Source: Paraspadella gotoi | Lineage: Eukaryota; Animalia; Chaetognatha | Direction of reading: 5' to 3' | NCBI GenBank assembly: GCA_051294375.1 | Contig: CM119264.1 | Location: 8,616,764 to 8,680,763, forward strand | Length of the DNA: 64,000 nucleotides | Part shown: piece after piece, positions 4,776 to 51,803 of the stretch | How positions within the stretch are numbered: position 1 is the stretch's first letter | Layout: each line of letters begins with the position of its first letter | The notes under the pieces: model-generated | Told to the model about the DNA's origin: nothing | What the model saw: only the letters and a program-made list of their open reading frames with translations | Databases searched by the model: none | Made by a program: the position numbers and the translations under genes

Positions 4776-5627
4776 TCCTCCCTTCGCCCCCTCTGGTTCT
4801 TTCATACCATTTTCGATTTAGAGAGTAAATAAAGAGATGATTTGCGCCGATGATAAAATCACAATCGTCGTCGTCGTCGTCATTTTCGTCTACGCGGTGG
4901 TACCGGTTAAATATGGATGAAGATCAGTCGTTGCCTTCGTCTTTGTCGTCGTCGTCGTCGTCGTCGTCGTGACCTTAGTTATAAATGCATGGAGTTCATT
5001 TGGTATCGACGTAGTACTATGGTCGTCGTCGTATTCGTCGTCGTCGTCGTCGATATTTTTTCCCTTGAATATCTTTTATGTTCTCTCGTATTTTCGTAAC
5101 GATGATGTGCGTTTTTATTGACAATTTTTCGTCGGGGAATCCTCATCTTTATTCTTTTATTCCGCTACTTTTTTCAATTCTTATCGATCATCACCGTTTT
5201 TCCACTATTACCCAACTTTTACCAGGAGATCCAGATCTTATCGGAAAAAGTATTAACAGCTTCAGCGCGATTTAAGATAATTAATAAGAAATTAAAACTA
5301 TATCGCTTTTGTCTTTCCATCGATATCCAATATGACCTTACATCTTTCACATTTGTACCAATTTTTATTATATATTTTTTTATATATAATCCGAAAAGAG
5401 CTGGACACTTGTGTTTAACCATAAAAACAACATAATTATCATTATATCAAGTTATCAAATTTATTTGAATTAACATAATATCATACCCTTTGACACTATC
5501 GTCAACGTTCCCCTAACCATTATGATCATCATCATCATAAGGGTGAATGAGGGACAATTGCCCACAGCATCGCTGACCACCACCCCCACCACCACCACCA
5601 CCACCATCGCCACACCCTCTTCCTCAC

Positions 5628-6900
5628 CTGATCCACTTCTCTCGGGTATCCGTCCACCAAGAATCCCTTGGTCCCTTCCGCCAGCGCCTTGAGGATGGCC
5701 GTCTCCAGGAGATGCAAGACCGTCTCCATGGTGACCAGTTCCCCTCGGGTCATCGCCGCCTGGAGAGATTTCCCCAGGGAAGAACCGGAGGCCACCTCGT
5801 CGCGAAGGAGGTCCCCTGAGGCGAAAGGGTGGTCCGGGACCGGGGTGTTGCTGTTTAGTGCAAAAGGACCGGAGATGCGTATGATCGGAGCAACGAGGGT
5901 TTTTTAAATCTGAATAAGATATTTGTATAAAATATAAATTTAATTGTTTCTGAATATTGGATCTGAAAATAAGATTAGCGAAGAAGACGACGACGACGAC
6001 GACAATGATGATGTTGATGATGATGACGATGACGATGACGACAAAACACGAGTTTCCCGTGATTTCAGAACTTAAGCTTCTCGCGTTGACGAAAACCGAT
6101 CGTAAAAATCCGATAAGGGTCTTCCCGGTCGAGCGCAATTTTTCACAAACGAAAATCGATGACGTCATCGGCGTTGTCGTCGTCGTTGTTATTGTCGTCC
6201 TCGTCGTCGTGATTGCGATCGTCGTTCTCTCAGTCGTTGACGATGTCGTCGTCTTCCTCTCTTTGCTGTGGTCGTCGTCGTCGTCATCGTCGTCGTGACC
6301 TCACCTGAAGAAAGATGAGTCAAGTCGAAGGTTTTCTTGAGCATGTCGCACTGCGTTCCCTTTCCCGAACCGGGACCTCCAACCACGAAGATGATCTGAG
6401 AACAAAGAAAAGACGATCATTAATCGTTCATATTGAAGATTTTAAGGCTCTCTTNNNNNNNNNNCATGTCGCACTGCGTTCCCTTTCCCGAACCGGGACC
6501 TCCCACCACGAAGATGATCTGAGAACAAAGAAAAGACGATCATTCAATTCATATTGAAGATTTTAAGGCTCTCTTTTCCAAAAGAGCCCCATTTCGGTTA
6601 ACCTTATTATTTAACCGTAATCGGTTTCCAAACCCATAATCGAATCCCTAATCTTAATTCCTAACTATCTTCACTAACCCTAACGTAATTCTAAACCCTC
6701 ACCCAAAATCCCAATCTTAAACCCTAAAATCCAACCCTTTGACCTAATCTTTAATCCTAAAAGTCAACTGAATTCTGAATTTGAAATGTGAGATTAAGAT
6801 TTAAGATTTAAAAGTGAAAAAAATAAAGGCGACCCTTGACCGGGAGCAATCCAGTCGTTCCCCGAGTCTCTCGTTCCCGTAAGCGGCGGCTCTGTCTCAT
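5628..6900 (-). CDS. Adenylate kinase (AK1/UMP-CMP kinase-like), N-terminal half only recognisable
   Basis: Exons 6900-6841 (putative first), 6395-6305 and 5815-5628 give [38 protein letters not shown]...GELV...[13 protein letters not shown]: P-loop, HLS.GDLLR and DGYPR motifs. No LID or C-terminal exons were found downstream. Confidence 0.85.
6343..6575. repeat. ~110-bp direct duplication flanking a 10-N gap (probable assembly overlap)
   Basis: 6343-6454 is repeated nearly identically at 6465-6575, on the other side of the Ns. Confidence 0.8.
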
Positions 6901-12397: not shown

Positions 12398-31573
<19,176 letters not shown>

Positions 31574-33731: not shown

Positions 33732-36700
33732 AGAGAGAGAGACTTTCGATTTCCTGATTTTTAGCAAACTCACTTTTCATTCGCTTATTGTGTGTCATGC
33801 TTTTTACTCCCTTTTTGTCTTCTCCTGTTTATATTTCGTGGCTCGCGTTTGGCTTGTGTGGGAAACTTAATGTTTTCGCGCTTCCTGGTTGTCGACTACT
33901 AGTTTTTTGTTTTGTTTTTTTTGTTTTTTTTTCCCTCTCTTTTATGTTCTTCGAGTTAACCGGTGACGTTGACAGGTTTTTACTTTTAGAATGAGACGTA
34001 ATTTCTAATGAGCAGAGTTGTCGTCGGGCATTTCATAAGCTGATGGTATTACTCAAGGAGCCACTGAGTCCCGACTGAAGGTGTCATGCTAATAGGCGGG
34101 GTGAACTATGCATTGCATAATATGCGTTTCATAGTATGCAATGCCCGACTACAGAGTAACAGTGTGTACAGTACTGTACACCTTTGTTTCATTTGTCACT
34201 TCATATATTCTTACTGGGACCTTGGGGAGATCCTGATTGGGCGCCACTGGGATGATGGGTATCTAGCTAAAGGTAGGTTCTGACTAGTCTCTCATCAGGT
34301 AAAAGAGGTAAGTTGTGTAAGTATGTAATGGTGATAGGAAAACAGGTATAACAAGCGGTATCAAGGGTACATAAAAGGGGGAAGAAGGGAGAGGGAAGGT
34401 TTGCAGACCCCGAGACCGAGCTGAGTTGTTGTAATGCCGATCTCTAAGACTCTATCCGTGACTCCGGGGATGAAGAGGAGGGGACGACGAGGGGAGGAGG
34501 AGGAGGAGGCGTTGAGAGGGGGAAGAGAAGGCCCGGGGGAGAGAGAGGTTCTGGCGTTAGGGTGAGCCTCTATCCTTTCTTATTCTGGGTATTTGCTTGA
34601 TGGAAATTTTTTTAATATTGCAAGTAAGAGTTATGTTCATAACGGTTTTAGAATTTTATCTTAAAAGTTTCATAATTTTAATGATAGATTGATCTTAATC
34701 TCTTTTTCTTCAGTTAATATGTTTTTCCTAAAAAAAAACCTACGGCTTGTAAACTTTTCTTCTAGTATTTGGTTATCTTCAGTGATTGTTTTTCAGAAGC
34801 TTTCATAGTTGTTATCATCATGTCACGCGTTTTTATGTGCTCTTTCTTAAAACGATTTTTTCCTCGCTTTTTGTCAGCGTTCTTTTTGTTGTTTCCGCTC
34901 TTTACGCTCTGATTTTTTTTTTTATATTTCAGCGCCGCGTTTCTTTGTTGTTTTTCGCCATTTACTCCCTCGTATTTGCCTCGCGTTACTCTTTTATTTT
35001 TCCCATCCCGTTCTTTTGTTTGCTTTATTCTCCCTTTCTTTCCGCTCGGCGTCCAGTCGTCCCCGTCGGCCGTCGCCGCTTCGACGCCCTTTACGAACAC
35101 GCGACTCATTAAACTCGGATGCTCATTTTTCTCTCTCTCTCTCTCGCTGTCCCTTTTTCTGTCTCTCTTTTCAATATTTTCTTATTAAAAAAAAAAAAAG
35201 AGAAGAGAGAAAAACAATTGAAAACGGATATTTCCCTCCATTTTGACGGTCGACGATTGACGAGGATCAAAACGAGAACGTTAACGTTTTCCTCTTTTTT
35301 TTGTTATTCCGACAAATACCGCTCATCATTTCTCTTTCGACTGAAAAAATAGAATTTTTTTTCCTGAAGAGAAAACATAAAACTTGTTCTTGATTAAAAT
35401 CATGAGTTTGTCGCGTCGATCTTCGTCGAAAGGTAAACAAAAAAAAATAATGACCAATTTTAAAAAGAAAAACAAGTATTCATATCGATAAGTTTTTTTT
35501 TCTCATTTCAAATCTTCCGTAAATTCCAATGTTAAGCGGAATAATTTATTCTTTCGTACATCAATTAATCCATTTTCCCTTTCTTCTAAGTTTTACATAA
35601 TTATCAGCAAATTTACATTAGTAATTAGTAAGACGGCTTGCGTTTTACGAGCCACGTTTTTTCATCTCTCGAGTTTGTCCCGAACCAATTCCCAGCCAAC
35701 ATTAAATTTCCCTCGATACCTACTTTATTCACAGGCCTTCCACCTCAACCCCCAAACCCCGTTCTTTTCTCACCTCTCAATCCACCCCCCGTCCCACCTC
35801 ACATTCACCACCTCTCCTCCGCCACCCTTCCTCGTCCCTCACCCCCGGCCGTCGCTGGCCCTCGCCTTTACTCCCTTTCCTCGTCCTCTCCCTCGGCCCA
35901 ACTCGCGCTCCCTCATCACTTGGTCGCCCCCACCTCGCTCGACCATCGCCGATCCCCTTCCTCTTCCTCCTCCTCCTCCTCCTCCTCCTACTCCCACACC
36001 CCCGGATCAGAGTCCTTCGACGAAGGTAAGGCGGAGGGAAGCTTCGGCGCCGAGTGGGTCAACTTCACCCAGGGGACGTCCATTCACGGACTCACTTTCT
36101 TCTACGACTCAACTCCCTTTTGGATCAGGTGAGTTTGAAAGGGAAAGTAAGGGTTTGAGAATTGCAATCAGAAGTGTATGATGCTTTAAAAGTTTGGAGA
36201 TAGCACTGAGATGATAGCCTTAGTAAAATAAGCTAAGCTTTTTTAATATAAATAATGAATATAACAATTTCAATACCCCGTTTCTCTCTCTCTACATATC
36301 AGGCGCGCCCTCTGGGTTTTGATCTTCCTGGCGGCGTTGTCCGTCCTCCTAACGGCGCTCGTCTACAACGTCATCCATTACCTCGATTTCCCGAAATCAA
36401 TCGACGTTACCATGACGACGGAAAAGTCCAAAGTCTTCCCCGCCGTCACCATCTGCAACATGAATTCCTTTAGGTCGGACTAGTCCGTCCAGCTTTCTGC
36501 TTGTCTGTCTATTGGCATTTAATCTCAGTTCAAACTACCTTTCGTCTTTGAACAAATTCCAAACCTACAGTTTTTTTTTTCAGCCCGATGTATGTTCAAA
36601 ATTGTTCATATGTTCCTCTGGTGATCTCTCTGTCTGTCTTTCTCTCTGTCAGTCTCTTTATATGAATATATAAATATAATATATAATATATAATATAATA

Positions 36701-36898
36701 TATAAATATAAATATTAAAAATATTTCGAAACTAATTAAACCAGTATAAAACAGTTTTATTCCAATATCAAAAAAAAGAATCGATCACTACTTTAGATTG
36801 TCGAAAGCGGTTCAACTCAACTGGTTCAAACAGATTGACAAAACCTTCGGCGATTACGTCCCACCAAGGAACCGGACAGAGGACGATGATGTAAGGGC

Positions 36899-36948
<50 letters not shown>

Positions 36949-39900
36949 GTTAATTTTTCGATTCCACTAATCAGGACTCACTGGCTCCAATGAATTTCAC
37001 TTTGACAACAATGGCACCGGATACCAACTTAACGCTGAACGAGACATTTCATCACAACTGCACACAATTTAATGAAACGGACGCCGGTTCGTAATGTTAT
37101 CGGAAGGAACGTAATTTAAGTCAATGTAAAGTTTAAAAAATAATTTATAATTAATCTCGNNNNNNNNNNATTAATCTCGTTTGGGGAACTATATCTTATA
37201 TCTTTATATCTTTCTATATATTTTGGTTTTTCCCGTAATTCCTGCCACACCTTCCCTTCCTCCCCTGGTCTCCAGAGGCGGGCGTGTCTACCCTGACCTC
37301 AAAGGAGCTCTACAAGTGCTTGGGTCAACGCAAGGAGGACCTCATCCTCAAGTGCACTTGGGGCACGACGGACTGCGACCTGGAGAAAGATTTCGTTCAC
37401 GTCCTCACGGATGCAGGATATTGTTTCACTTTTAATCACGACGAATCTAAAGAGTCCTCTTCCACCGGTGAGTCGTCGTCGTCGTCGTCGTCGTCGACAT
37501 TATCGCCGTCGACATTGGCGCCCATTTAATTTCCATCAACTACTGATTATCTGTAACTCAGAAGTGACCTGTTTAATTGATTATTGTTTGGCGAATACTT
37601 ATTGGCCCAAGCTGCGCGTGATACCCTCACGAAAAAATAGGACACTGTATCCATGAGTATCGTTCTGTGGGATTGCCGGTTTGCTGTGAGGGCGAAATGC
37701 GCATTCCAACGTCTCGAACTTTCAATGATGCATATGGACACTTGCCACGCGCGCCGAAGCAATAAAGTCCGTCTTGGCGTTGTTCTTGTTCCACCTTCGC
37801 CGCTACTGGCAGCGACGTCAGGGGCGGCAGCGGCGGCGGCTTATCCGCCCTTCTTCGCTTTGCTCCTGACGTTTCTGTCAAAGAAACTCAAAGTTCCGCT
37901 TCGTTTCTTTGAAATCCGAAGAGATTCAATTACTGTTAGTTACTTCGTTGTCGTGAGAAAAGAGGAAGTGGGTGGAGGAAGAGAAAGAAGTAGTTTCGTG
38001 TGAAGAAAGAAGTATAGAACTTGGAGAGAAAAATGGAAAGAAGAAGGAATAAAGTGAGGAAGGAATTGGAGGAAAGAAAAGAGAATGTTTTGTGGGAAAG
38101 AAGAGATAGGAATGAAACGAGGAGAGAAAATTGAAAGAAGGAGGAATAAAGTGAGGAAGGAATGGGAGGAAAGAAAAAGAATGTTTGTGGGAAAGAAGAG
38201 ATAGGAATGAAACGAGGAGAGGAAAATGGAAAGAAGGATGAATAAAGTGAGGAAGGAATGGGAGGAAAGAAAGAGAACGTTTTGTGGGAAAGAAGAGATA
38301 GGAATGAAACGAGGAGAGAAAAATGGAAAGAAGGATGAATAAAGTGAGGAAGGAATGGGAGGAAAGAAAAGAGAATGTTTTGTGGAAAGAAGAGATAGGA
38401 ATGAAACGAGGAGAGAAAAATGGAAAGAGAGGAAATAAAGTGAGGAAGGAATGGGAGGAAAGAAAAGAGAATGTTTTGTGAGGAAAAAAAAATGGGGAGG
38501 AGGAGGAGGAAGAACGTTAGGAGGAAGGGAGAGCAATGAGAGAACGGATTAAAAGGTTTTTCTTTCTAATCGATTCCCAGGCTTTTAACGAATTCAAGGC
38601 AAAAGGTTTCTTTTACGATTATTTGTTCCGGCTTTTTTGAGGCGTCTGTGATTGGGCAACGGTTTGAGAATTTTCGAAACGTACGTTATTTATGGGAGCG
38701 ACCCGTAAATTTTAGACGGTAGTTGTTTGTGCCTCTTGAGAATTCGTTTTACTTTTTATTTGCTGACTTTAGTCTTTACTTAAAATGGCGCTCAGATTTT
38801 GGAACAGGTTGGTAAGTTTTATTTATCAACAACAATTGGCGACGAGGAAGAGATAAAAATATTTGTTTACAATTAAAAACGGCGTGAAATTAATTATTTA
38901 ATTTCGAGTTTAAAAAAGTAAAATCGTGACTTTAAAAACAATTATAAACCCACCCCCCAACGCAGTTAAAAGCGTTGAACGCCTTGGGTCTTCAAGAGGC
39001 ATAAGTTTCTCTCTCGCGAGACGTTTAAACAATAAAAATAATCGCGATATCTTCACATACGAATCGAATCTTCGCGGGAAACGGGCGAGGCAGAACCCAG
39101 ATATTAACTCGTCGGCGAGTCCCACGGCCACGGTCGTGTCTCGTCATGACGGGCGTAACAGTAGTAATTTTAAACATAAAAATATAAAATTCTGAAGATA
39201 TATGACATTTTTTTTATTTTAAAATTTTAAAATTCACTCTTTGAATGAAAGAGAAGCGTTTTTGAGAAGAATTTCAAAATTCCATCGACAGTAGATCAAC
39301 AGTATTTTTTTTCTTTCAAATCAGTAGTTGCGATCATTTAATAATATTTTCTTAATGTTCTCGTTATCTTTTGTCGATCGCTTCTATAGTCGCTTTTTCT
39401 GTCCTTCATAACCGAAGTAACGACTTTCCATTCCATTTGCGTCTTGGCGACGACGACGAAGACGACGATGACAACGACGAGGGCAACCACGACAACGAAG
39501 ACGAGACGACGTTTACTAAACGAGTTTGTTATGAAAAAAAATTATATTGAAAGCACCGAAGACGATTAACCTTATTTTCTTCATCTACAAACGCTAAATA
39601 AAATGAGTTTGAATGGGTTTTGGACTGCCGCTGCATTTGTTCATGTCCTATTTTCAATTTAATCTATCGACATTCAGATGATAATGATGATGTTTGTTTG
39701 TTGATAATTAAACGATGATGTAATTAGTTTTTTGTCTCTTTCTCGAATCCCGAATCCTCCCTCTCTTCAATGTCTTATCTTCTTCTTCTTCTTCTTCTTC
39801 TACTTCTTCTTCTTCTTCTTCTCCCTCTTCTCCTTCTTCTCCTTCTTCTCCTTCTCCGCTTTGCCCGCTTTTCTTCCTTTCAATTACTCAATTAGTCCTT

Positions 39901-41591
39901 TTCTTCTTCGATAAACTTTAATTTGATATGCGTTTAGAATTAGTTGTAAAGAAAACTAAACAAAAAACGCCAACAAACCATAGCTTTCTTTTGTTTTTGC
40001 CTTTTTGGCTCATATAAGCAAAAAAATGATACCCAACTTTATTTCATGTTTTAAAGGGACGGCGCAGGGCGTGTCCCTCCTGATGAATGTGGAGAGCTAC
40101 GAATCGATGAGCGGACCGACGATGTCTTCCGGAGTGAGAGTCATGCTTCACACCAGCGAAGAGAAGAATCCTCTCGTGCAGGAGTTGGGCTACTCCGTTT
40201 CCAGGTAACGAGGTTGGCCAACAACGAAACCGACTGTCGGCTATATATGTATATGCCAGGCGAATGGCAGGGACTTACTGTATAACTCTTGAGCATTGGA
40301 ATTATGGACAGTTTTTTTCTGTAGGCAAAATTATCAGCAGATACCATCAGCTTAACACTCTTTTAGTATTGGTTCAATAATTCAATAATTCAACAATTCA
40401 TTAAAATACTTTAACGTTTTTCAATTAACATTGATTAATAATAAATCATGAAAAATTAAGCGGAACCCACACGACTTTCGCCATCACATCTGATAAAGAA
40501 ACGAGAGTGAAACCTCCGTATGGCGAATGCCAATCGTCTTATCTTGGTTAGTTAATGATGATGATTATGATTATAAAAAAATAATATATAATTTAACTAT
40601 TAACCCCTTTCTTATCGAACAGTCGATGGCAAAGAGGTTGCCTATTCGGAGAGCCAGTGCCGTCGCAACTGCGACTTGCGGCAAATGAACGCCACCTGCG
40701 GCTGCATCGACGCCTTCATGGAAGACATCAACGTCAACGGGTCCAAGCTCTGCACGCTGGCCGACGCCCGTGACTGCACCAACCCGCGAGCCATGGAACT
40801 GAGGGAAATGGCGAGCGGCTGCAAGGAGCTTTGCGTGGTTCCTTGCAAGGCGACCATCTTCAATCCGGTATACTCATTCTCGACCCTGACCTTCGTCCAG
40901 GTGAGTTTTCCCCGTTACTTTTTTCGCAGCTTCATCTCTCATCTTTACTTTCCCACGCCCTTACTTTCCAAGGCAACGAAACTCATCGACCCTGCGACCC
41001 GATCTGAACTGATCTCGCGGCAACGTCTCGCCCGCGATTTCGCCTCCAAAGTCCGCGACATCTGGTTCATCCCCGACCAGATACTTATCGACGCCGTCAT
41101 CCGGGACTACGAGGCTTTCCACGTGGCGTTGCTCAAGTGGGTCTTCGATGTTGAACAACTGACATGTTTTTTCGTCTCTCTAAAGCGGTCTTTTTTTAAT
41201 TTAGTTTTTTTGGGTATAATTTATTCATTTTTAACTTTCTCATTTAAGTAAGAAAAACTTGCCCTGCGAGGGAGGGAGGCCATACAGCGACTAAGAGTGA
41301 AAGAGAGAGAGAGAGAGAAAGAGAAGGAGAAAGCAAGAGAGAGGGCTTCCCTGAAGGTCGGAGTCTTCGCCCTCTTCTTAATCGACACTTCCTCTTTCAC
41401 CCCAACCCCCACCCCTTACCCTTCCTTCAGATTTCTCGAGTTGGCGGCGACGACGGCGTCGAGCGTCGATAGAGAGACGGAGTGCTTGGACGAAGCCAGG
41501 AGCGAGACGGAGGTGGCTGTCGTCGCTGCCAAGCACGCCGCCGACGGAGAACATTTGAGCTTGGTGAGACGACGACCAATATGACGACGAC

Positions 41592-41640
<49 letters not shown>

Positions 41641-43780
41641 TTGGTGATAATGATGATAATAATAATATACTTGAAATCTCTCTATCTCCCGAACAGGTCG
41701 AAAAAATAGAGGGAGCCCAGAGCGAGATACTTTCGTTGACTCTGACGGAGATTATGACTCATATCAAATCCATGACAGCGATGACTCTGAAAAAGATTTT
41801 CATACAGGAACCGGCAGTGACCGAATTCGAGACGACGAGAGCGCGTGAGTGCGGGATGAAAAGAAAAGAAGGGAGGAAAGAGGGAAAGAATGAAGAAATT
41901 AAGAAAAGAAAGAGGGAAAGAAAGATGGAAGGAAAGAAGGTAGGAACAAAGAAAAGTAAAGGCAAGGAAGTAATGAATGAGGAAAGGAAGAAAAAAAGGT
42001 TAAAAATAGTATGAAAGAAAAGCAGGAAGGAATCGAGGTTGGAAGGAAGGTAGAAAGAAGGCAAGGTGGGAAGGAATAAAGGAAAGAGGGGAATAAAGAA
42101 AGTTAAAAAAGAAGGTAGCTAAAAAGGTAAGGAGAAAGAATTTAAAGAAGGTCATAACGAAATTTAAATAGGTTGGATAGGAAGCAGATAGGGAGATATA
42201 TGGACTAAGAAAAGAATGAAAAGATATTAAACCCAATAAATTTCTCTATATAAAAATTAAAGTAATTGAAAACGAAAAAAAAGCAAAGAAAAAAAGCAAA
42301 ATGAATCAAACTACTTTTAGTAACATTTAAGTCTAACTCAGAGGATGTGACCGACCTCATCACGGCGGCGAACGACGACGATCACCAGACGGAGACGCTG
42401 CTCAACTTGACGGCGTTGTCGACTCAACTTAAGATGACAATCATCATCCAAGCGGAGACCATCAAGGCCATGGAGAACAATCTGCAGTCGCTGAATCATT
42501 CCAGCGAACACGTTAGTCTTGCCAGGCGGGAGACAAGATTAAGAGCGAGACGCGTCTGTCTTATTCGCTTTATCTCTCTCTCTCTCCCTCTCTCTCTCTC
42601 TCTATCTCGCAGGTGGGAGAATTGGTTGACAAGGCGAAATTGTACGTGGATGGTAAAAATGAGACTCACCCGCCCACTTACCTGAAAACAAAATTGGCAG
42701 AGGACTTTGTGTCGGACTTGAGCGCGCTTACTCTGCAGGTACGAGAAAAAAAAAAAAAAGAGAGAGAGAGAGAGAGAGATTCTGCTTTCAATCTTTCGGA
42801 AAGTTAAATTTACGTTTTCTCCTCGCGTGGAATTCTCGGAAATGACTTGAACCCTTTCCTCAGCGCCTCACCCTTAACATGAGCGGAATGCAAATGGCGC
42901 TGGAGTCGTTCTTCTCTCAGAACTTGATTTTCCAATCGGTGAAGTCGCAGATGTGCGACGGGATGATCGACTGCACAGAGTGCAACAATAAAACAGGTAA
43001 TTAATTGAGACGTCGAAATCTTGTGGGTAGTTGGTGGAAAACTGAGCTCACTAATGAATAAATAGATTGATGAACAGAAAATGTTATTTGTGTAAGGCAA
43101 TGAATGAATTATAAAATAAATACAAGGGAGAAGGAATGAATGTATGAATTTAAGTAAACCTTTTAAACGAATCAACTAACCCTATGAATGAATATAAAAA
43201 AAATAGCTGCTAAAAGAATATACGTACCAAGGTAGGTCCTTGCGATGGTATATAATGTAATACAAATCTACTTTGGATTTTCATTTGCAGACGGTGAATC
43301 CGTTGCGACGCAGCTGAAGGAAGACTTCGTCGCAGCGCAGACGAGACTCAAATCGTTTCTCGTTCTCATCGATAAATTTCAATCTCGATTGCGGGACTAC
43401 AAAGACTCGATAGAATTCACCGAGGATTTCGTCACGTAAGGGGGGGGGGAGAATTGTGATTTAAAATTCTTAACTCGAGTTTTTTGATTTTACCCTCTGT
43501 TCAGACGAAACATTTTACAAGTTGACATTTATTACCGTGGCCTCAGCACAACAGAAATTCAACAAAAGAGGATCTACATGTTACAGGATTTATTCAGTGA
43601 GTGTGAAAGAGATGCAGTGAAACTGTGAAAGTGTTTCTTCTCAGTCATCGATCTTTTTCGTCGTTCCTTCAGGCGACTTTCGGTGGACTGATGGGTTTGT
43701 GCATCGGAGCATCGCTCATCTCAGTTTTAGAAATATTCGATTTTCTCATTCATTTCGCGCTTAAAAAAATATTCTTGTAG
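33258..43780 (+). CDS. DEG/ENaC (ASIC-like) amiloride-sensitive channel subunit with large extracellular insertion (~957 aa; one apparent +1 indel in the last exon)
   Basis: 18 exons: 33258-33438, 35735-36128, 36303-36473, 36797-36890, 36975-37086, 37276-37467, 40057-40204, 40461-40546, 40623-40900, 40973-41136, 41431-41563, 41697-41844, 42342-42511, 42613-42738, 42864-42996, 43291-43435, 43505-43596, 43673-43780. Motifs: TSIHG, TM1 RALWVLIFLAAL, FPAVTICNMN, GYCFTFN, PPYGEC, Cys-rich thumb, NILQVDIYY, (S)DFGGLMGLCIGASLISVLE. Confidence 0.92.
34019..34181. mobile_element. Short MITE/HINE-like element
   Basis: Inverted repeats tgtcgtcgggcatttcata / tatgcaatgcccgactaca followed by the hairpin gtgtacagtactgtacac. 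Confidence 0.45.
38003..38480. repeat. Purine-rich ~95-bp minisatellite, about 5 copies, intronic
   Basis: Unit aataaagtgaggaaggaatgggaggaaagaaaagagaatgttttgtgggaaagaagagataggaatgaaacgaggagag repeated. Confidence 0.9.
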
Positions 43781-44176
43781 CAGTCTCCAAATTTGACAAT
43801 ATAGCTTTTTTCATTCTAAATTTTTTTTTATTCACACTTCGATCGTGAAATCAAACTGCGAACTTCCGGAACATCAAATCAAATGCGATTTTTGGTGGAA
43901 TTAATTCATTTTTTATTTCTATTTTACTTTTAATCACTTCTAACGTTGTTGCTGTTTCTATCGCTTTTGTAATGTATTTTTCAATTGATTATATTTTCCT
44001 TAATCTAGAAACAAGAAATTTTGATTTTCATCCTGCATAATCAAGCTAGGACTACACCCAGTAATCTGGATTTTTGATCAAATCAATAAGGGATCTGTTG
44101 CTATCATATAGACCAATAATGCCAAGATCAATTTCAATCAATACTATCACCATATCTTTCATATTACCTTATTTAT

Positions 44177-44800
44177 TAGTTGCGTCGCGAATACTCGCGA
44201 AGCAACTCTATAAATCACTTTTCGGTCGGTCTGTCTGTCGCTCTGTTGGTCGGTTTGTCTGTCCGTCTGTTTGTCCCGCTTACGTTAAAAATATATACAA
44301 TTTGAGTATAGTTAATTTATCTAATAATTAATTCATAATAATTAATAAAAATTAAAAATAATAATAATAATAATATTAATAATAATTGATCTAATAATTA
44401 ATTTAATTGATCTAAGGTACTACTAGCGTCGCCTTTAGGAAACTATAAAACTATAAGGTGAAGAGACAGTAATTATTGATAAGTGTTAATGACAGAACCA
44501 TTCAATATAAGCAGTCCCTGAGCTTCGGATCAGGCTGTAACACCATGTTACAGGCGGGTTAAACGCCCCGTCCCTCTTAACTGCCAGACGACCACCGGGC
44601 TAGAACCCCGGACCTTTGGGTTGGGAAGCGATTGACTTGCCTCCGGCACCAATGGCCACTGATGAACGGTTGGTGGATTTTAATCCACCATAAAGGAATA
44701 AACACACGAGCTAAGAAAGTTAATGTTGTCATGTCATGTCGCCTCATGTCCAATCACGAGAAATACACGAAATGCCGCAGTCACTGCGGCGAAACACATT
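44177..44800 (+). mobile_element. HINE/DINE-1-like element, copy 3 (with nested SINE)
   Basis: 5' gttgcgtcgcgaatactcgcgaagcaac, GTCG/GTCT microsatellite, 3' gtcactgcggcgaaacacatt, same as copies 1 and 2. Confidence 0.6.
44503..44691 (-). mobile_element. tRNA-derived SINE-like repeat, copy 1
   Basis: Minus strand has an A-box-like TGGTGCCGGAGG and a B-box GGTTCTAGCCC, plus a terminal hairpin tggtggattaaaatccacca. A second copy lies at 51380-51562. Confidence 0.65.
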
Positions 44801-44833
44801 TGAATTACCGTTCTCGTTTTAGAAGTTTTAGCT

Positions 44834-46243
44834 TCAGACGTATGACGTTTGTTTTTCCTTGAAAAACTTAATGGTATTTTTCCTGATGTCTAGAAAAAAG
44901 TCTACCGACATCGCCTTCAAAGATTTTTCAGTGAGCGCCCAGTACAAAACGTAGGAAGCGACGGAAATGTCAGAGCAAGTTGGTCCGTAGCCATCGCGTT
45001 CGATTTCAACGACGAGGTTTTTCCCGCGGGAAAACTCTAACCGCCTCGATCGATCGTCCTGGCCAAAATACGTGTAAAAGTGTTGGGCCCGGTCGTTCTT
45101 GAAGGCTGAAGGCAGAGTTCCCCAGACGTCGTAAATGGCGAGGGTTTTATTCTCCGCCGTCGACTTATCAATGAGGTCGTCCACTTCCTTCTCCAAAGTC
45201 TCGCGGTGGACCCGCTTTTCGGCGACGCAGGGACGATCGTTGATGCTGATGGGGACGAGTGATCGATTCACCAGGACGTGAAGTGAGGTGGTGGCTCTTG
45301 TGAGAGCGAAACTCACATCGTGATAGACAGAGAAATACGTCGCCACGTCGATCAAAACCAGGAGACACGGAAACTCGCATCCCAGTACTTCCGTGTAATC
45401 ACGAAAGATTATGTTCTTCCTGCAAAGATTTTCGTCATAGACTTTGCATTCTTCTAATGCTCGTTGCAATTTTTCCTGCAGGAAATAATGCGAGCGACAA
45501 AAGACGAAAATCTCGAGTTTGTTAATTCTCCTCATCATCTCTAAAGCTTCGGCGATCCAAGCTTTTCGATCGTTGGAGTCGTCTTCGATCGTCTCGATCA
45601 CCGGCGGACTTTTCTCCCAGCTGATTGCAGAGGAAATTTCGATCCTAGATTTCGCCATGAGGTCATTGCAGTTGTGAAAATCGGCATTGAGCTTGGCGAT
45701 GGCCCTGGACGCTCTTAGACTCCCCCCGAGTTCGAAATGCTTCACAGCTTTCTTAGATCCTTCAAGCGTCATCGCTTTGGCGATGTTATTCCTGACGAGC
45801 TTATCCGAAGAAAAAAAGAAGATGGATTGATCCGTGACTTTGTCAAAAATCTCCCTTTCCTGATCGTGGATGCTCCCATCCTCATTGATTTGGAATTCGT
45901 CGAAAAGGATGAGTTTGAAATCGTCCATGTTTTTGGGCGGATGATGACCAATGTAAATCCTCTCGTCCATTTTTTTTTCTTTCGTAAACGATTCTTGGAC
46001 TTCACTCTTCAACTGGAGCAGGTCGTGCAAGATTCTCACGAAGACTTTTCCATCGGGATGAATTGTGAGAAAATCCTTGGCGACTTTGAGCAAGACCATC
46101 GTCTTTCCGCTGCCGCTGCATCCGGTGACGGAAACGAGAGGCGATTCGCCTTTAGAGAAGGAATTCCTCGCCTCTTTAACGACCTCCATCTGCTTAGAGG
46201 TCCAGGTGCAAACGTTCGGTGCACCGAACTCCTGCTTCATCAT
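44834..46243 (-). CDS. SF1/Schlafen-like P-loop helicase domain (C-terminal part of a probable single ~945-aa intronless ORF)
   Basis: 469-aa ORF with Walker A GCSGSGKT, Walker B LILFDEFQ, LRASRAI, VLGCEFPCLLV and FALTRATTSLHVL (SF1 motifs V/VI-like). Confidence 0.85.
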   Translation of the reverse strand: MMKQEFGAPNVCTWTSKQMEVVKEARNSFSKGESPLVSVTGCSGSGKTMVLLKVAKDFLTIHPDGKVFVRILHDLLQLKSEVQESFTKEKKMDERIYIGHHPPKNMDDFKLILFDEFQINEDGSIHDQEREIFDKVTDQSIFFFSSDKLVRNNIAKAMTLEGSKKAVKHFELGGSLRASRAIAKLNADFHNCNDLMAKSRIEISSAISWEKSPPVIETIEDDSNDRKAWIAEALEMMRRINKLEIFVFCRSHYFLQEKLQRALEECKVYDENLCRKNIIFRDYTEVLGCEFPCLLVLIDVATYFSVYHDVSFALTRATTSLHVLVNRSLVPISINDRPCVAEKRVHRETLEKEVDDLIDKSTAENKTLAIYDVWGTLPSAFKNDRAQHFYTYFGQDDRSRRLEFSRGKNLVVEIERDGYGPTCSDISVASYVLYWALTEKSLKAMSVDFFLDIRKNTIKFFKEKQTSYV

Positions 46244-46271
46244 TTTTCGGTGAATGAGGATGTCCTCACTC

Positions 46272-47672
46272 TCAAGATTGCGTAAAAAAAACCAACATGG
46301 CGGTCAAACATCGAAGTTGTTCCTTTTGACGATCCTTTTTGGTGAAGCTTCGGCCTCTTTTTTCCGTATTTTCCCGAATCTTTTCCATGCATTTGTGAAA
46401 AACATTTTCTAAATCTTCGCTCAACGGATCGACGAGGATCGTGAGATGAACTCCTTTCTTTTCTTTGTTCGAACGAGGTTCCGCCATGGTCCTGTCCCCG
46501 AAGACGACGTTAATCGAATGCAGGCATTTTGTGTCATCGTCAAAATTTCCAAGTTGACTGATCAATTCGGTTTTTTGCACGACGGGTTCGAACTGAAGGT
46601 AACTCGGAGTGTCGCTTTTTGAATCTTCTTTAAAGAAAGAGACGACAATGACGCCGACTTTTTCCGCAACCACGACCATCTCCAGCAGCCAGGTCCAGTA
46701 CGAGGAAATGATCTCGATCTCGGAATTCGAGAGATTACCCAGCAACAACAGGGCTTTCTCATAGTCGACTTTTGACATGTTCGAGAAAATCGCCTTTCTC
46801 CCTTCCTTCCATTCTTCTCTCTTCAGCGCGCCGACGAAAGCGGCGGCGACTTTCTGCTGCTTGACGAGGAACTCGGGGTCATAATCGACGCTCGACGTAA
46901 ATTCTTTCTCGAATTGCGGAGATTTCTCGAGTAAAACGTCGACGGGGAAAAGATCCTGAATTTCGGGAATCAACTGGACCTTCTCGTCTCTCCATCCGGG
47001 GAAGAAATCCTCGATGCAGCTGACGATTCGCGGATCGTCAAGCGCGTATCCGTCCGGAGATCCGGCGAGACGAAGCTTTATCTCCTTGGATCGAGACACG
47101 ATCCGACGGTTGAACTCTTCGGTAAAGTGTTGACAATTGGACGAGAAATGTTCGTAGACTTTGGACAGATCGTCGTAATACTCGAGCAGTTCTTTCAGCT
47201 TGACCATGTTGTCGACGAGAGAACCGAGAAAATGACCGCGATCCCTGGTGTCGAAATTGCACACGTTTTTTCTGACATTTCGCTTACGTCTCTGCACGAC
47301 AACGCCCTCTTCCATGGCGAACTGCAAGAAGATTCCCTTCTTGTCTTTTTCCAAGGAAATTTCGCATTTGTTTTTCGCGTCTTTTTCGTTCAGGAGTTTC
47401 AAAACGTAGAAAGTGTGGAAGAGCTTTTTGTTTTTGACGGCGGGAAGTTGAGTGAGCGGTTTCCCCCACGATTTCAGCGAAAGGAGGCTGCACTTGTAGA
47501 TTTTGCTTTCGTAGACGACCATGTCGGGGGTTAGTTTGTTTATATCTTCGACCCAAGATTTGTAGTCGGGTCGTTCGGAAAATGAGTCGACTTTAGTGTA
47601 GTCGTAAATGCGGTAGGATTCCGGCCTCGATTTTCTCGCCGATGGAGAAGGGTCACTTTTCGCAGTGGCCAT
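46272..47672 (-). CDS. N-terminal part: permuted papain-like (PPPDE/LRAT-type) peptidase-like domain plus unknown region
   Basis: 466-aa intronless ORF with FHTFYVL...Y...SSNCQHFTEEF (His before an NCxxF Cys). It joins the downstream ORF if one T is removed from the T8 run at 46284-46291. Confidence 0.7.
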   Translation of the reverse strand: MATAKSDPSPSARKSRPESYRIYDYTKVDSFSERPDYKSWVEDINKLTPDMVVYESKIYKCSLLSLKSWGKPLTQLPAVKNKKLFHTFYVLKLLNEKDAKNKCEISLEKDKKGIFLQFAMEEGVVVQRRKRNVRKNVCNFDTRDRGHFLGSLVDNMVKLKELLEYYDDLSKVYEHFSSNCQHFTEEFNRRIVSRSKEIKLRLAGSPDGYALDDPRIVSCIEDFFPGWRDEKVQLIPEIQDLFPVDVLLEKSPQFEKEFTSSVDYDPEFLVKQQKVAAAFVGALKREEWKEGRKAIFSNMSKVDYEKALLLLGNLSNSEIEIISSYWTWLLEMVVVAEKVGVIVVSFFKEDSKSDTPSYLQFEPVVQKTELISQLGNFDDDTKCLHSINVVFGDRTMAEPRSNKEKKGVHLTILVDPLSEDLENVFHKCMEKIRENTEKRGRSFTKKDRQKEQLRCLTAMLVFFTQS

Positions 47673-47805
47673 TTTAAATTTTTAATTCGATTTACGTTAA
47701 CGTTTTTTCGTTCTTTTATTTACAAAAGAATGAAAGAAAAGTACAGAATTTTTTGAATGTTTAATCGGATTTGGCTTCGAGAAGTTTTGTTGGGAGAAAA
47801 CTGAT

Positions 47806-47872
<67 letters not shown>

Positions 47873-48622
47873 TTTATTCGTTTTATTCAGTGTCCCCCGT
47901 TCGCTGTTCGACGGTGTTTAAAATGACAGGTTTTTTCTTTGAACAAAAAAAAATGAAAAAAGGAAAATAACACTGAATTCCGATCCTGTTTCAAACTTTT
48001 TTTTTGTTTCTTAGTTTTAAAAACTAAAATAAATAGTTGCCAAATCTGTACTGATTCTTTATCCTCTTAAACGTACATGAGGCGTAGCACAACTAGTCAA
48101 CTGATCTTTAATCTCTCTGACGAATACAAATTATAAATAGAATCGGGGATAATCGTAGGTATGGCTGCCGACACCAGGACATTCGATAGCACAACCAGGT
48201 GCGGACTGCGGAGTCCACACTTAAGATTTAGTCGTAATGAATCATCTGGGCTAAAGATCGAGTTTAAACTAAAGAGGAGACATTTGGTTTTATTAAAAAA
48301 AGATATACATTATTGGAATGAACTAGTTGCATAAATCTTATAATCCATTTATAAACGATCAAAATGTAAATATAATCAAAGCACATTTCCAATACATTTC
48401 ATCCCAAAGCGAAGCCTTTGACTAACCCTCAACTAATCTAATACTTAATAATGAAAATAAAATTTGATCTCTTCGCGATTTTTGTAATACTTTTTATAAA
48501 TTTTAATAAGTATGATATACCTATATTTTTAAAAAAAAAACTAACGGTTATTTTCAAAATTTTAAAACAATATTTTGGAGCAAATTATTATTATTATTAT
48601 TTTTTTTTTCAAGACGTCCTTC

Positions 48623-49895
48623 TCATTTGCCGGCCAGGACGAAAGCGCAAATCCTCGTCATCAAGGAACCCATGTAGTTTTTCAAAACGTCGTAGGATTG
48701 CACCGAGTATACGTTCTCCTGCGAGCCGACAAAACAGAAACGACGGCATTTTAGTATTTATTTATTATTCATTAAAATATCTACGCTTTATTTGGGAAAA
48801 AAAGGAAAACCTTATTTCCGTGGGCGATTGCCAGGAGCGAACTCTCCTCGACTTTTCCGACGCCGAAGGCGATGACTCCACGCCCTCGTCCGACAGTTTA
48901 TCGACGGGACGGTCGACGCTGTCGGCCGATCGACCGTCAGTGAAGACGACGGCGATCTGGAACGACGAAACGAGATGTCGTTGTCGTCGTCGCGGTTGGA
49001 GTCGTTGTCGTCGTCATCATCGTCTTACGTCATCGCCGTGTCGTCGACATCTCGGTCTTGATCTTGTCATCGTTGTTCTCGTCGTAGTCGTTGTCGCCGT
49101 CGGAATTATCTCTGTGTGTCTTAATTTATCTGTCGTCTTATACTGACCTTTTTAACCTTTGAATCGGTTCGGAACTTCAAGTCCGAAAGAACTGCCACAA
49201 GGCTTTGCCGACATAAGTGCCACCGGTCTCGAACTTGGTTGCCGCAATTGCTGCCTGTACTTCGGCCTGCGTCTTGTACCTAATGTAGGTTTGACAAGGG
49301 AAAGTGAGTCAGAAAGTACTTTTGTACAAACTAATTCTTTTTAAATGAGAAACTATTAATGGCTTAAGATTATCCTATACGAGTTTTCTGTAGGGAAAAA
49401 TAATATCAATCAATCGATCAATCAATGAAATCCCACTTTTCCAGCTTGAATATGGTGTGGGCGAAGGTGTTGAAGGTGGTCATCCCGACCCTGGCCTTCT
49501 CAGGTCCGACTGTGAAGAGGCCGACGATGTCGGAGATGAACTTCATCTCGGTTTTGAAGTCGTCGGCGCCGACGCTGAGGGAAGAGTCCGCCACGAAGAC
49601 CATATCCACCACGGCCGTGTGGATGCAAGGGGCTGTGGTGGGCGGTTATCGGGTGGTTGAATCGTTTTAGGAATTGATTTGATTTGATTTGGTTGATTTG
49701 ATTTGATTGATTTGATTGATTTGATTGATTTGATTGATTTGATTGATTTGATTGATTTGATTGATTTGATTGATTTGATTGATTTGATTGATTTGTGGTT
49801 TCCTTAAGACATCCTTGAATATTTTAAAGCCGCTGTATTTTTTGGTGACATGAGATTGATACCTCAAAAAGTTGATAAGTTGCCAACAAATTTTC

Positions 49896-49955
<60 letters not shown>

Positions 49956-50129
49956 TATTCTTTCTCTCTTAATATTCTTTCTCACCCTCCGTGGGTGGCA
50001 ATGTCGGTCCGCAGGTGATATCTGAAAAAAAGGGTGAATTGTATTCGTACTTGTGAAATTACGAAAATCTCATTTCGGTTTTTAGCTTTTCGAATAAACC
50101 TAAAGATATATAATAAAATAAAATAATAA

Positions 50130-50205
<76 letters not shown>

Positions 50206-51803
50206 TCTAAAAGTTAACTAACTAACTAACTAACTAACTTACCTGATTTCTGGACGACGAAAGAATTAAAGTAAGGTCCGTATGCAGCAGCCGAGACTCC
50301 ATTCTGGGTTTTTCCCTCGTAACTTTTGAGTCCCGCTCGGACGGAGACTCGAACGGGTCCCCCTAATAAGACAAGTGTTCGTGAATGTAGTTGTAGGTTT
50401 AAACGAATACATTGTGATCGGATGTGCTTTTTTAAACTGGCCTAGAGAAATGTAAGTATATTTGATTCACAAATCGTCTGAATTTATGATCGCTTCGAGA
50501 CGTGCAAGGTCGTTTTTTAAGAGAAAAATCCTTTTTATCCGTAATGATATGCGATGGTTATAAATATATAATAATGAGAGAGAGACGAAAGAGACACAGA
50601 GAGAGGGAGAGAGATGAGAGGAGAGAGAGAGAAAGAGAGAGTCTGAGGAGGGAGACAGAAGGACAGAGGGAGGGATGAGGAGAGAGGAGAGTTAAAGAGA
50701 GAGAAATGAACAAGAAATTAGAAAGAGACAAATAAAGTGATAGAACTTCTAACCGGCGATATTTTAATCAATATGACTCCAAGAGCTGTCTGTTACTTAT
50801 TGTATAACTCAAATTTAATCGTGAGAATCAAACTTAAACATGTTAGTCACCTTTGTCGGCGGGAATAACTCCGTCGTGAATAGCGGACAAACAAACCGGT
50901 GAATTCACGGGATGAACTCCGGATCCCTACAGTCACGGAGTAAGCATAGAAAGATGAAGGACGTGGAGGGAGTTCAACAGAGGCAAGGTAAAGCTGAAGT
51001 ATGAGTGCGCGAGTGGCGTTATTGGCTCCCGATCGAAAAGCATCTCACCTTGACCGTTGGCCAAGAATTGTGATCCAAGCATCCCGAGGGACAAAGGACA
51101 TCCAGGGATTTCTTGACGATTCCGGCGTCGGGCAAAGTCCAGTCGCATTCAACCTCCAAAGCCTGCAACAGGGTTCCTGGCTCGGGAAGTAATGAATAAA
51201 ACGTAGTACAAAACATAGTTCTCATAAGTTCTGGTGCTTATAGTTATGTTTTTTGGATATTTTATGTACAGGAGTATTAACTGAAAAGTTCTACAGCATT
51301 TAACACAATTTTTTTTTCTACAAAATATCGTTTTCTTTTTTGCATTGAAAAGAGAGTAATTATTGTTATGTGTTAGTGACAATATAAGGAGTCCCTGAGC
51401 TTCGGATCACGTTGTAACATCGTGTTACAGGGAGGTTAAGCGCCCCGTTCCTCTTAACTGCGACCACCGGGCTAGAACTACGGACCTTTGGGCTGGGAGG
51501 CGAATGACTAGCCTCCGGCACCAATGGCCGCAGACGAAGGGTTGGTGGATTTTAGTCCACCATACCACGTTGATTATGAAGCCAAACTTACCGTGAATTA
51601 GATTTGCGTACCAGGCGTTGTACCCTTAAAATGGAGGAGATCTTTCGTGTATTTTATTTCTAACAACATAAGGAATGAAAAAAATAATCACGCATTATCT
51701 CACTCTGAGCGTCGGTCAAGGTTTTTGCGTCGCTCTGCCCGACGGCGGACGGCGCCATCGCCACCAACGCCGACGAGATAAACAAGAAAAGCGACGCCTT
51801 CAT
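48623..51803 (-). CDS. Secreted LCCL + von Willebrand A domain protein (cochlin/vitrin-like architecture); two apparent 1-nt deletions
   Basis: Exons 51803-51704, 51624-51592, 51176-51049, 50926-50851, 50362-50243, 50021-49986, 49632-49437, 49279-49148, 48956-48811, 48718-48623. Signal peptide MKASLFLFISSALVAMAPSAVG. LCCL: CPSGC...SPVCLSAIHDGVI...GG...YEGKTQNGV. vWA: DMVFVADSSLSVG, GGTYVGKAL, VVFTDGRS, IAFGVG. Confidence 0.88.
49675..49795. repeat. (GATTTGATT)n 9-bp tandem repeat
   Basis: Direct; it explains the QINQIN ORF. Confidence 0.95.
51380..51562 (-). mobile_element. tRNA-derived SINE-like repeat, copy 2
   Basis: Closely similar to 44503-44691 (agtccctgagcttcggatca...ccgggctagaac...gcctccggcaccaatggcc...ggtggattttagtccacca). 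Confidence 0.65.

Follow-up and report, generated by a model that had tools for sequence, protein, structure and literature searches.

A predicted cysteine hydrolase joined to a Schlafen-like predicted linker and superfamily 1 helicase in an intronless gene of the chaetognath Paraspadella gotoi

The subgroup III Schlafens (SLFN5/11/13/14) carry a C-terminal superfamily 1 (SF1) helicase with Walker A and B and motifs V and VI. Available excerpts of the work on SLFN11 describe single-stranded DNA between the helicase lobes as activating the N-terminal effector, with the helicase held against the linker. The anti-phage nuclease-helicases Nhi and AbiO (DUF2075, PF09848) likewise have a restriction-endonuclease-like domain followed by an SF1 helicase of the same class; Nhi is described, in the excerpt available, as an HsdR-like N-terminus with a DUF2075 helicase, a domain common to SLFN5/11/13 (10.1101/776245). 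Work on Schlafen origins, as excerpted, follows the ribonuclease (RNase) domain and supposes that linker and helicase joined it later (PMC12492265, PMC13056530). Here we describe a minus-strand gene in 64,000 nucleotides of Paraspadella gotoi (contig CM119264.1, positions 8,616,764 to 8,680,763; the window). We hypothesize, with confidence a little short of even, that it encodes one protein of about 945 amino acids (aa), a predicted papain-like cysteine hydrolase on a Schlafen-type linker and SF1 helicase, acting as a nucleic-acid-gated defence effector.

A literature search of listings and abstract starts, covering few subscription papers, found no description of a fusion between a cysteine enzyme and a Schlafen-type helicase. 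In the window the coding sequence is split between two frames offset by one extra A and translated here as P0001 (466 aa, N half) and P0002 (489 aa, C half); with one A fewer, the joined open reading frame (ORF) comes by arithmetic to 945 codons plus a stop. Its features are:

47672 (ATG) to 44834 (stop), minus strand: coding sequence, a single intronless ORF when the extra A is absent
47073-47630, minus strand: predicted permuted NlpC/P60 (PPPDE/CLN5/YiiX-like) domain, residues 15-200
47415-47417, minus strand: His86, predicted catalytic base (27 of 27 rows with a letter)
47349-47351, minus strand: Glu108, putative third member of the triad (30 of 32 rows with a letter)
47133-47156, minus strand: Tyr173 to Asn179-Cys180, the Cys being the predicted nucleophile (Y, N and C each in 36 of 37 rows)
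46308-46985, minus strand: middle domain of predicted restriction-endonuclease-like fold that also matches the Schlafen linker, likely inactive
45254-46216, minus strand: SF1 helicase of Schlafen-group-3/Nhi/AbiO type
46100-46123, minus strand: Walker A (GCSGSGKT)
45896-45901, minus strand: Walker B (DE)
45371-45382, minus strand: helicase motif V
45290-45301, minus strand: helicase motif VI
44837-45241, minus strand: C-terminal tail of about 135 aa, common to relatives P0017, P0027 and P0059

Architecture compared with Schlafens and Nhi/AbiO

The sequence-only reading had placed Walker A/B and SF1 motifs at the C-terminus, and GCSGSGKT, DE and motifs Q, V and VI are all present there; the Q motif, Walker A, Walker B, LRxS and motifs V and VI are kept in those relatives that cover them. 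Atlas neighbours of the helicase include SLN13 and bacterial Schlafen-group-3 and nuclease-helicase clusters (0.93-0.95). The PADLOC profiles AbiO and Nhi match at 35-38 bits (E 1e-9 to 1e-10) over the helicase part only and not over the full length, whereas a true member of that family reaches 532-548 bits (E 1e-160); hhalign of the helicase against AbiO/Nhi gave a probability of 96.8 over 167 columns. The one plasmid match was an AbiO/Nhi protein, 29% identical over 37% of the query, and an NCBIfam scan returned weak P-loop matches only. Separately, the plasmid AbiO/Nhi gene (L001:702-3690) is annotated just as "ATP-binding protein"; behind it lie two genes for GIY-YIG nucleases and one for a recombinase.

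Compared with the subgroup III Schlafens, the window protein has a His/Cys enzyme domain in place of the Schlafen core (AlbA) RNase with its Ex4ExK, lacks SWAVDL, bears an extra C-terminal tail and is encoded without introns. Residues 15-200 form the His/Cys domain and residues 230-455 are linker-like, and the sole Pfam match of P0001 at E<=10 is C97 (PF05903). By sequence, the protein is not a Schlafen, having neither RNase core nor SWAVDL, is not C97 by score and is not Nhi. We infer, by analogy, a group III Schlafen-like function with a swapped effector.

A middle domain of about 210 aa lies between the peptidase-like and helicase parts. The sequence-only reading, which had proposed a two-part peptidase-helicase fusion, found both of those parts and overlooked this third one, predicted from its model to be a linker of restriction-endonuclease fold. 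At its PD-(D/E)xK site, 23 of 25 rows have an acidic residue at position 331; the site as a whole is not conserved, the commonest residue filling at most 6 of 27 rows at position 345 and at most 8 of 26 at position 347, in a register inferred from strand order. Conservation of this kind suggests that the nuclease site has likely decayed and the domain is inactive. An apparently decayed nuclease site and an additional cysteine-enzyme domain in front set the protein apart from Nhi/AbiO.

More tentatively, we propose that the Schlafen linker and helicase constitute an ancient, free-standing sensor chassis (a decayed restriction nuclease with a DUF2075 helicase, as in bacterial Nhi) to which eukaryotes attach varied effectors, this family possibly answering nucleic acid not by a tRNA nuclease but by a cysteine enzyme acting as deubiquitinase, protease or acyl-hydrolase. 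Set beside the published emphasis on the RNase domain, the family presents the opposite exchange, in which a similar linker-helicase module bears a different effector. If true, the "linker of unknown function" would be identified as a dead restriction-nuclease fold.

The predicted N-terminal cysteine-enzyme domain

His86 precedes N179-C180-Q-H-F in the translation, the order that the sequence-only reading had remarked on. Permuted NlpC/P60 enzymes are recognized, according to the excerpt available, by His before Cys, a conserved Tyr and a polar third residue (PMC3142127), and all three are found here. PPPDE/DeSI (C97), CLN5 and YiiX/BcPPNE (C92) likewise have His before Cys, Tyr seven residues before Cys (the spacing of Tyr101/Cys108 in PPPDE1) and Cys at a helix start; in the predicted model Cys180 begins a long helix, 180-196. 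The window protein differs from these enzymes in a conserved Glu 22 residues past His, which the model places on the strand adjoining the His strand, in an Arg134 invariant in the family, and in scoring below the C97 cut-off. It also differs in its fusion to a linker and helicase, which solved permuted NlpC/P60 members lack. Structural alignments to permuted NlpC/P60 enzymes cover 106-124 residues, with DeSI1 the fold match of highest identity (19%), and a permuted NlpC/P60 fold is predicted from the models. The C97 profile matches 3 of 45 family members at E<=0.1 (best 0.0054). LRAT/PLAAT chains are absent among the structural matches listed, which does not exclude such a likeness, and papain-like chains are absent from the Foldseek listing against PDB. 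Sequence searches of PDB yielded nothing of use; rows for an odorant-binding protein, RecG, Mfd and a capsid were treated as chance or generic P-loop.

Proposed gating and substrate

By analogy with SLFN11, the helicase would bind single-stranded foreign or damaged nucleic acid and the dead-nuclease linker would relay the change. Cys180 might then cleave a target protein; in keeping with DeSI enzymes, the likeliest bond is a peptide or a ubiquitin-like isopeptide one. Such a peptide or isopeptide bond is favoured by DeSI1 being the best match and by UBA fusions in the family: P0027 and P0039 carry UBA domains in front of the enzyme domain, P0039 also a ZZ-type zinc finger. The alternative, which we consider possible but doubtful, keeps the same nucleic-acid-sensing chassis and makes the N-terminal domain a lipid acyl-hydrolase, transacylase or S-depalmitoylase (CLN5/YiiX/LRAT-like) that would hit membranes or acylated proteins when triggered. 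An acyl-lipid bond is favoured by the likeness to CLN5/YiiX, the Glu and a hydrophobic, membrane-like insert, some 40 residues long, that precedes the His inside the enzyme domain in one subclade (bootstrap 100; P0014, P0017, P0018, P0030, P0033, P0059, P0060). The window protein lacks this insert, having 25 residues at that place, and both the identity to DeSI1 and the UBA fusions, which point to ubiquitin, speak against a lipid substrate here. The sequence-only reading's suggestion of a nucleic-acid-sensing protease or acyl-hydrolase is partly supported.

Several results weigh against a Schlafen-type sensor with a protein-cutting cysteine enzyme. For the enzyme domain, the Pfam C97 score of 13 bits falls below the gathering cut-off of 29.2; the Atlas recognition score of the N half is under its threshold; and Foldseek against PDB gave no match at E<=0.001 with either model. 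All fold scores are below 8, which may mean merely a common arrangement, except that of McrC (8.1). PavA and a DUF4783 protein score level with the DeSI1 fold match, and so does CLN5; the tie with CLN5, together with the subclade insert, points to lipid substrates. For the middle domain, McrC and Can2-type nucleases rank above SLFN11 as fold matches, and the SWAVDL motif is not in the translation.

A divergent family and the case for defence

A full HMMER scan of P0001 against 1.84 billion representatives returned 45 proteins at E<=0.001, with identities of 24-39%. Among full-length relatives identity is mostly 20-40%, and to the two halves of the window protein it is 21-32%; domain order is the same in distant relatives. 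By profile scan, the N-domain, middle domain and helicase lobe 1 occur together in 18 of 83 proteins (10 clusters), a partly circular count, as many of those proteins built the profiles. P0031, a tandem repeat, was excluded from the family alignment and ten short rows from the tree. The 30 clusters looked up came from ENA (24), Logan (3) and JGI (3). Longer homologues of the two halves were looked for by word index and not found; a profile search found two proteins. No relative was confirmed in viral contigs, JGI metagenomes, prokaryote genomes or phages, nor in plasmids with P0059 as query, by scans insensitive at 25-30% identity, so absence is not proved.

An immune role appears likely from the sequences, through the known helicase relatives and the divergence of the family. 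A housekeeping or genome-maintenance role outside immunity, with the helicase moving along host DNA or RNA and the cysteine domain stripping a protein adduct or modifier there, seems to us improbable. It would accord with apparent transcription in a run taken as RNA by guess and with no known challenge, with the absence of any close paralogue mapping at 90% likeness in the read-set contigs, and with the action of SLFN11 itself at stalled forks. However, every named helicase relative is antiviral, and relatives only 20-40% identical, with varying added domains and several short ORFs on long contigs, fit fast birth-and-death evolution (or assembly errors). The short family ORFs P0004, P0008, P0073 and P0077, on contigs of 3.5-4.9 kb, suggest broken copies or assembly frameshifts like the window's. 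Were the defence reading true, the gene would provide, in a non-model eukaryote, a nucleic-acid sensor that consists of one protein, can be put to the test and has a protease or lipase as its output.

Introns, transcription and origin

The stretch is present in nine runs, all under one organism label and drawn from three studies, and eight of these (X1 to X8) were compared to the window; the X2 and X3 contigs are identical, look like one data set filed twice and were counted once. X2 and X3 are taken as RNA because of spliced joints at the neighbouring genes and the tool's guess, no run being recorded as RNA. These joints run from 40898 to 43679 in one contig and from 48956 to 49148 with CT..AC ends, and none occurs in the DNA-like runs X1 and X5. 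Contig 10 of X2 (3,164 bases) spans 44664-47796 without a skip, while neighbouring genes lie there in pieces of 130-277 bases. The gene is intronless, as the sequence-only reading had stated, and appears to be transcribed in X2; the 2.8 kb that it had described is, however, not one open frame in the window, owing to the extra A.

A recent insertion of a viral, bacterial or transposon gene, an origin raised by the sequence-only reading, is very unlikely, even though the gene is intronless amid intron-rich genes and one Atlas neighbour cluster of the N half is 68% viral. Base composition also speaks for such an insertion: the ORF has a G+C content (GC) of 0.475 and third-position GC (GC3) of 0.60, against GC of 0.58-0.63 in five neighbouring exons, whose GC3 is 0.78-0.84 in four and 0.66 in the fifth. 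Against it stand a deep family with the same fusion, some members bearing eukaryote-type UBA and ZZ domains, the lack of any transposase-type Pfam match, and the remoteness of the helicase's likeness to bacterial Nhi/AbiO.

Upstream the gene abuts a (CT)n run; downstream it meets high-copy repeats, where we place one further feature:

44664-44833, minus strand: likely 3' untranslated region; the X2/X3 contig ends at 44664, an end that the repeat may set

This region holds a short high-copy repeat (44777-44829), a few bases past the stop codon and with a weak relative at 23745-23828, and then runs into a very high-copy repeat, two copies of which lie in the window (44459-44693 and 51346-51564) and are 83% alike. 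With ARAGORN at a relaxed threshold this repeat has a tRNA-like head, and it is likely a tRNA-derived short interspersed nuclear element. ATTAAA at 44684 was not taken as the poly(A) signal because the contig end would also suit a break at the repeat.

The one-base break

The window has here two long minus-strand stop-free stretches, 47681-46272 (469 aa) and 46303-44834 (489 aa). Both are longer than chance: in 50 trials of shuffled DNA from the 40-52 kb region, the longest stop-free stretch was 214 aa (mean 128). They overlap at:

46285-46292, no strand assigned: run of eight A at which the window's frame is broken; in seven of eight runs it is one letter shorter

The letter is absent at 46284 in X2, X3, X4, X5, X6, X7 and X8, covering all three studies, while it is kept in X1, from which the assembly may have been made. 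X1, X4 and X6 come from a single sample, within which X4 disagrees with X6 at further sites, so the window form would be either a source-data error, such as a read or assembly slip, or a real null allele in X1's heterozygous or pooled sample. Gene callers on this assembly would miss the gene because of this break. That the locus is a pseudogene, two separate genes or contaminant DNA (the last allowed for by the sequence-only reading) is already largely refuted and hardly credible: the frameshift in the window and X1 and the lack of a contig tying the ORF to a neighbouring gene are outweighed by an open frame in seven of eight runs, relatives that cross the junction as single unbroken ORFs, and the nine runs from three studies with host repeats at both ends. 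As none of the eight runs compared has a bridging contig, linkage to the neighbours rests on the assembly.

A 4-base CGAT insertion at 46329 in X5 was set aside as a probable GATC re-ligation artefact, with like ones at 42964 and 48355. Four runs hold nine coding variants, five of which alter a residue and none of which falls at the catalytic site; they do not decide the question of an immune role. Four variants fall within 44 bases (47258-47301) in X6 only, two of them altering residues 138 and 139 beside the invariant Arg134; X4, from the same sample, lacks all four.

Surrounding genes

On the plus strand, a multi-exon DEG/ENaC-family gene (about 36000-44230; Pfam ASC, E 5e-11) is convergent with the helicase gene, and an RNA-like contig joins 40622-40898 to 43679-44230. 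On the minus strand lies a VWA-like multi-exon gene (about 48200-51470; Pfam E 9e-4, weak), within which two DNA runs carry many small indels against the window (about 48700-49380), a region that may be poorly assembled or a divergent haplotype. These two flanking genes suggest an animal genome. Near-identical stretches about 1.6 kb apart (28582-28989 and 30220-30687) are a tandem or assembly duplicate. The minus strand also holds exons for an ankyrin-repeat protein (455-1400) and for adenylate kinase (5538-5903).
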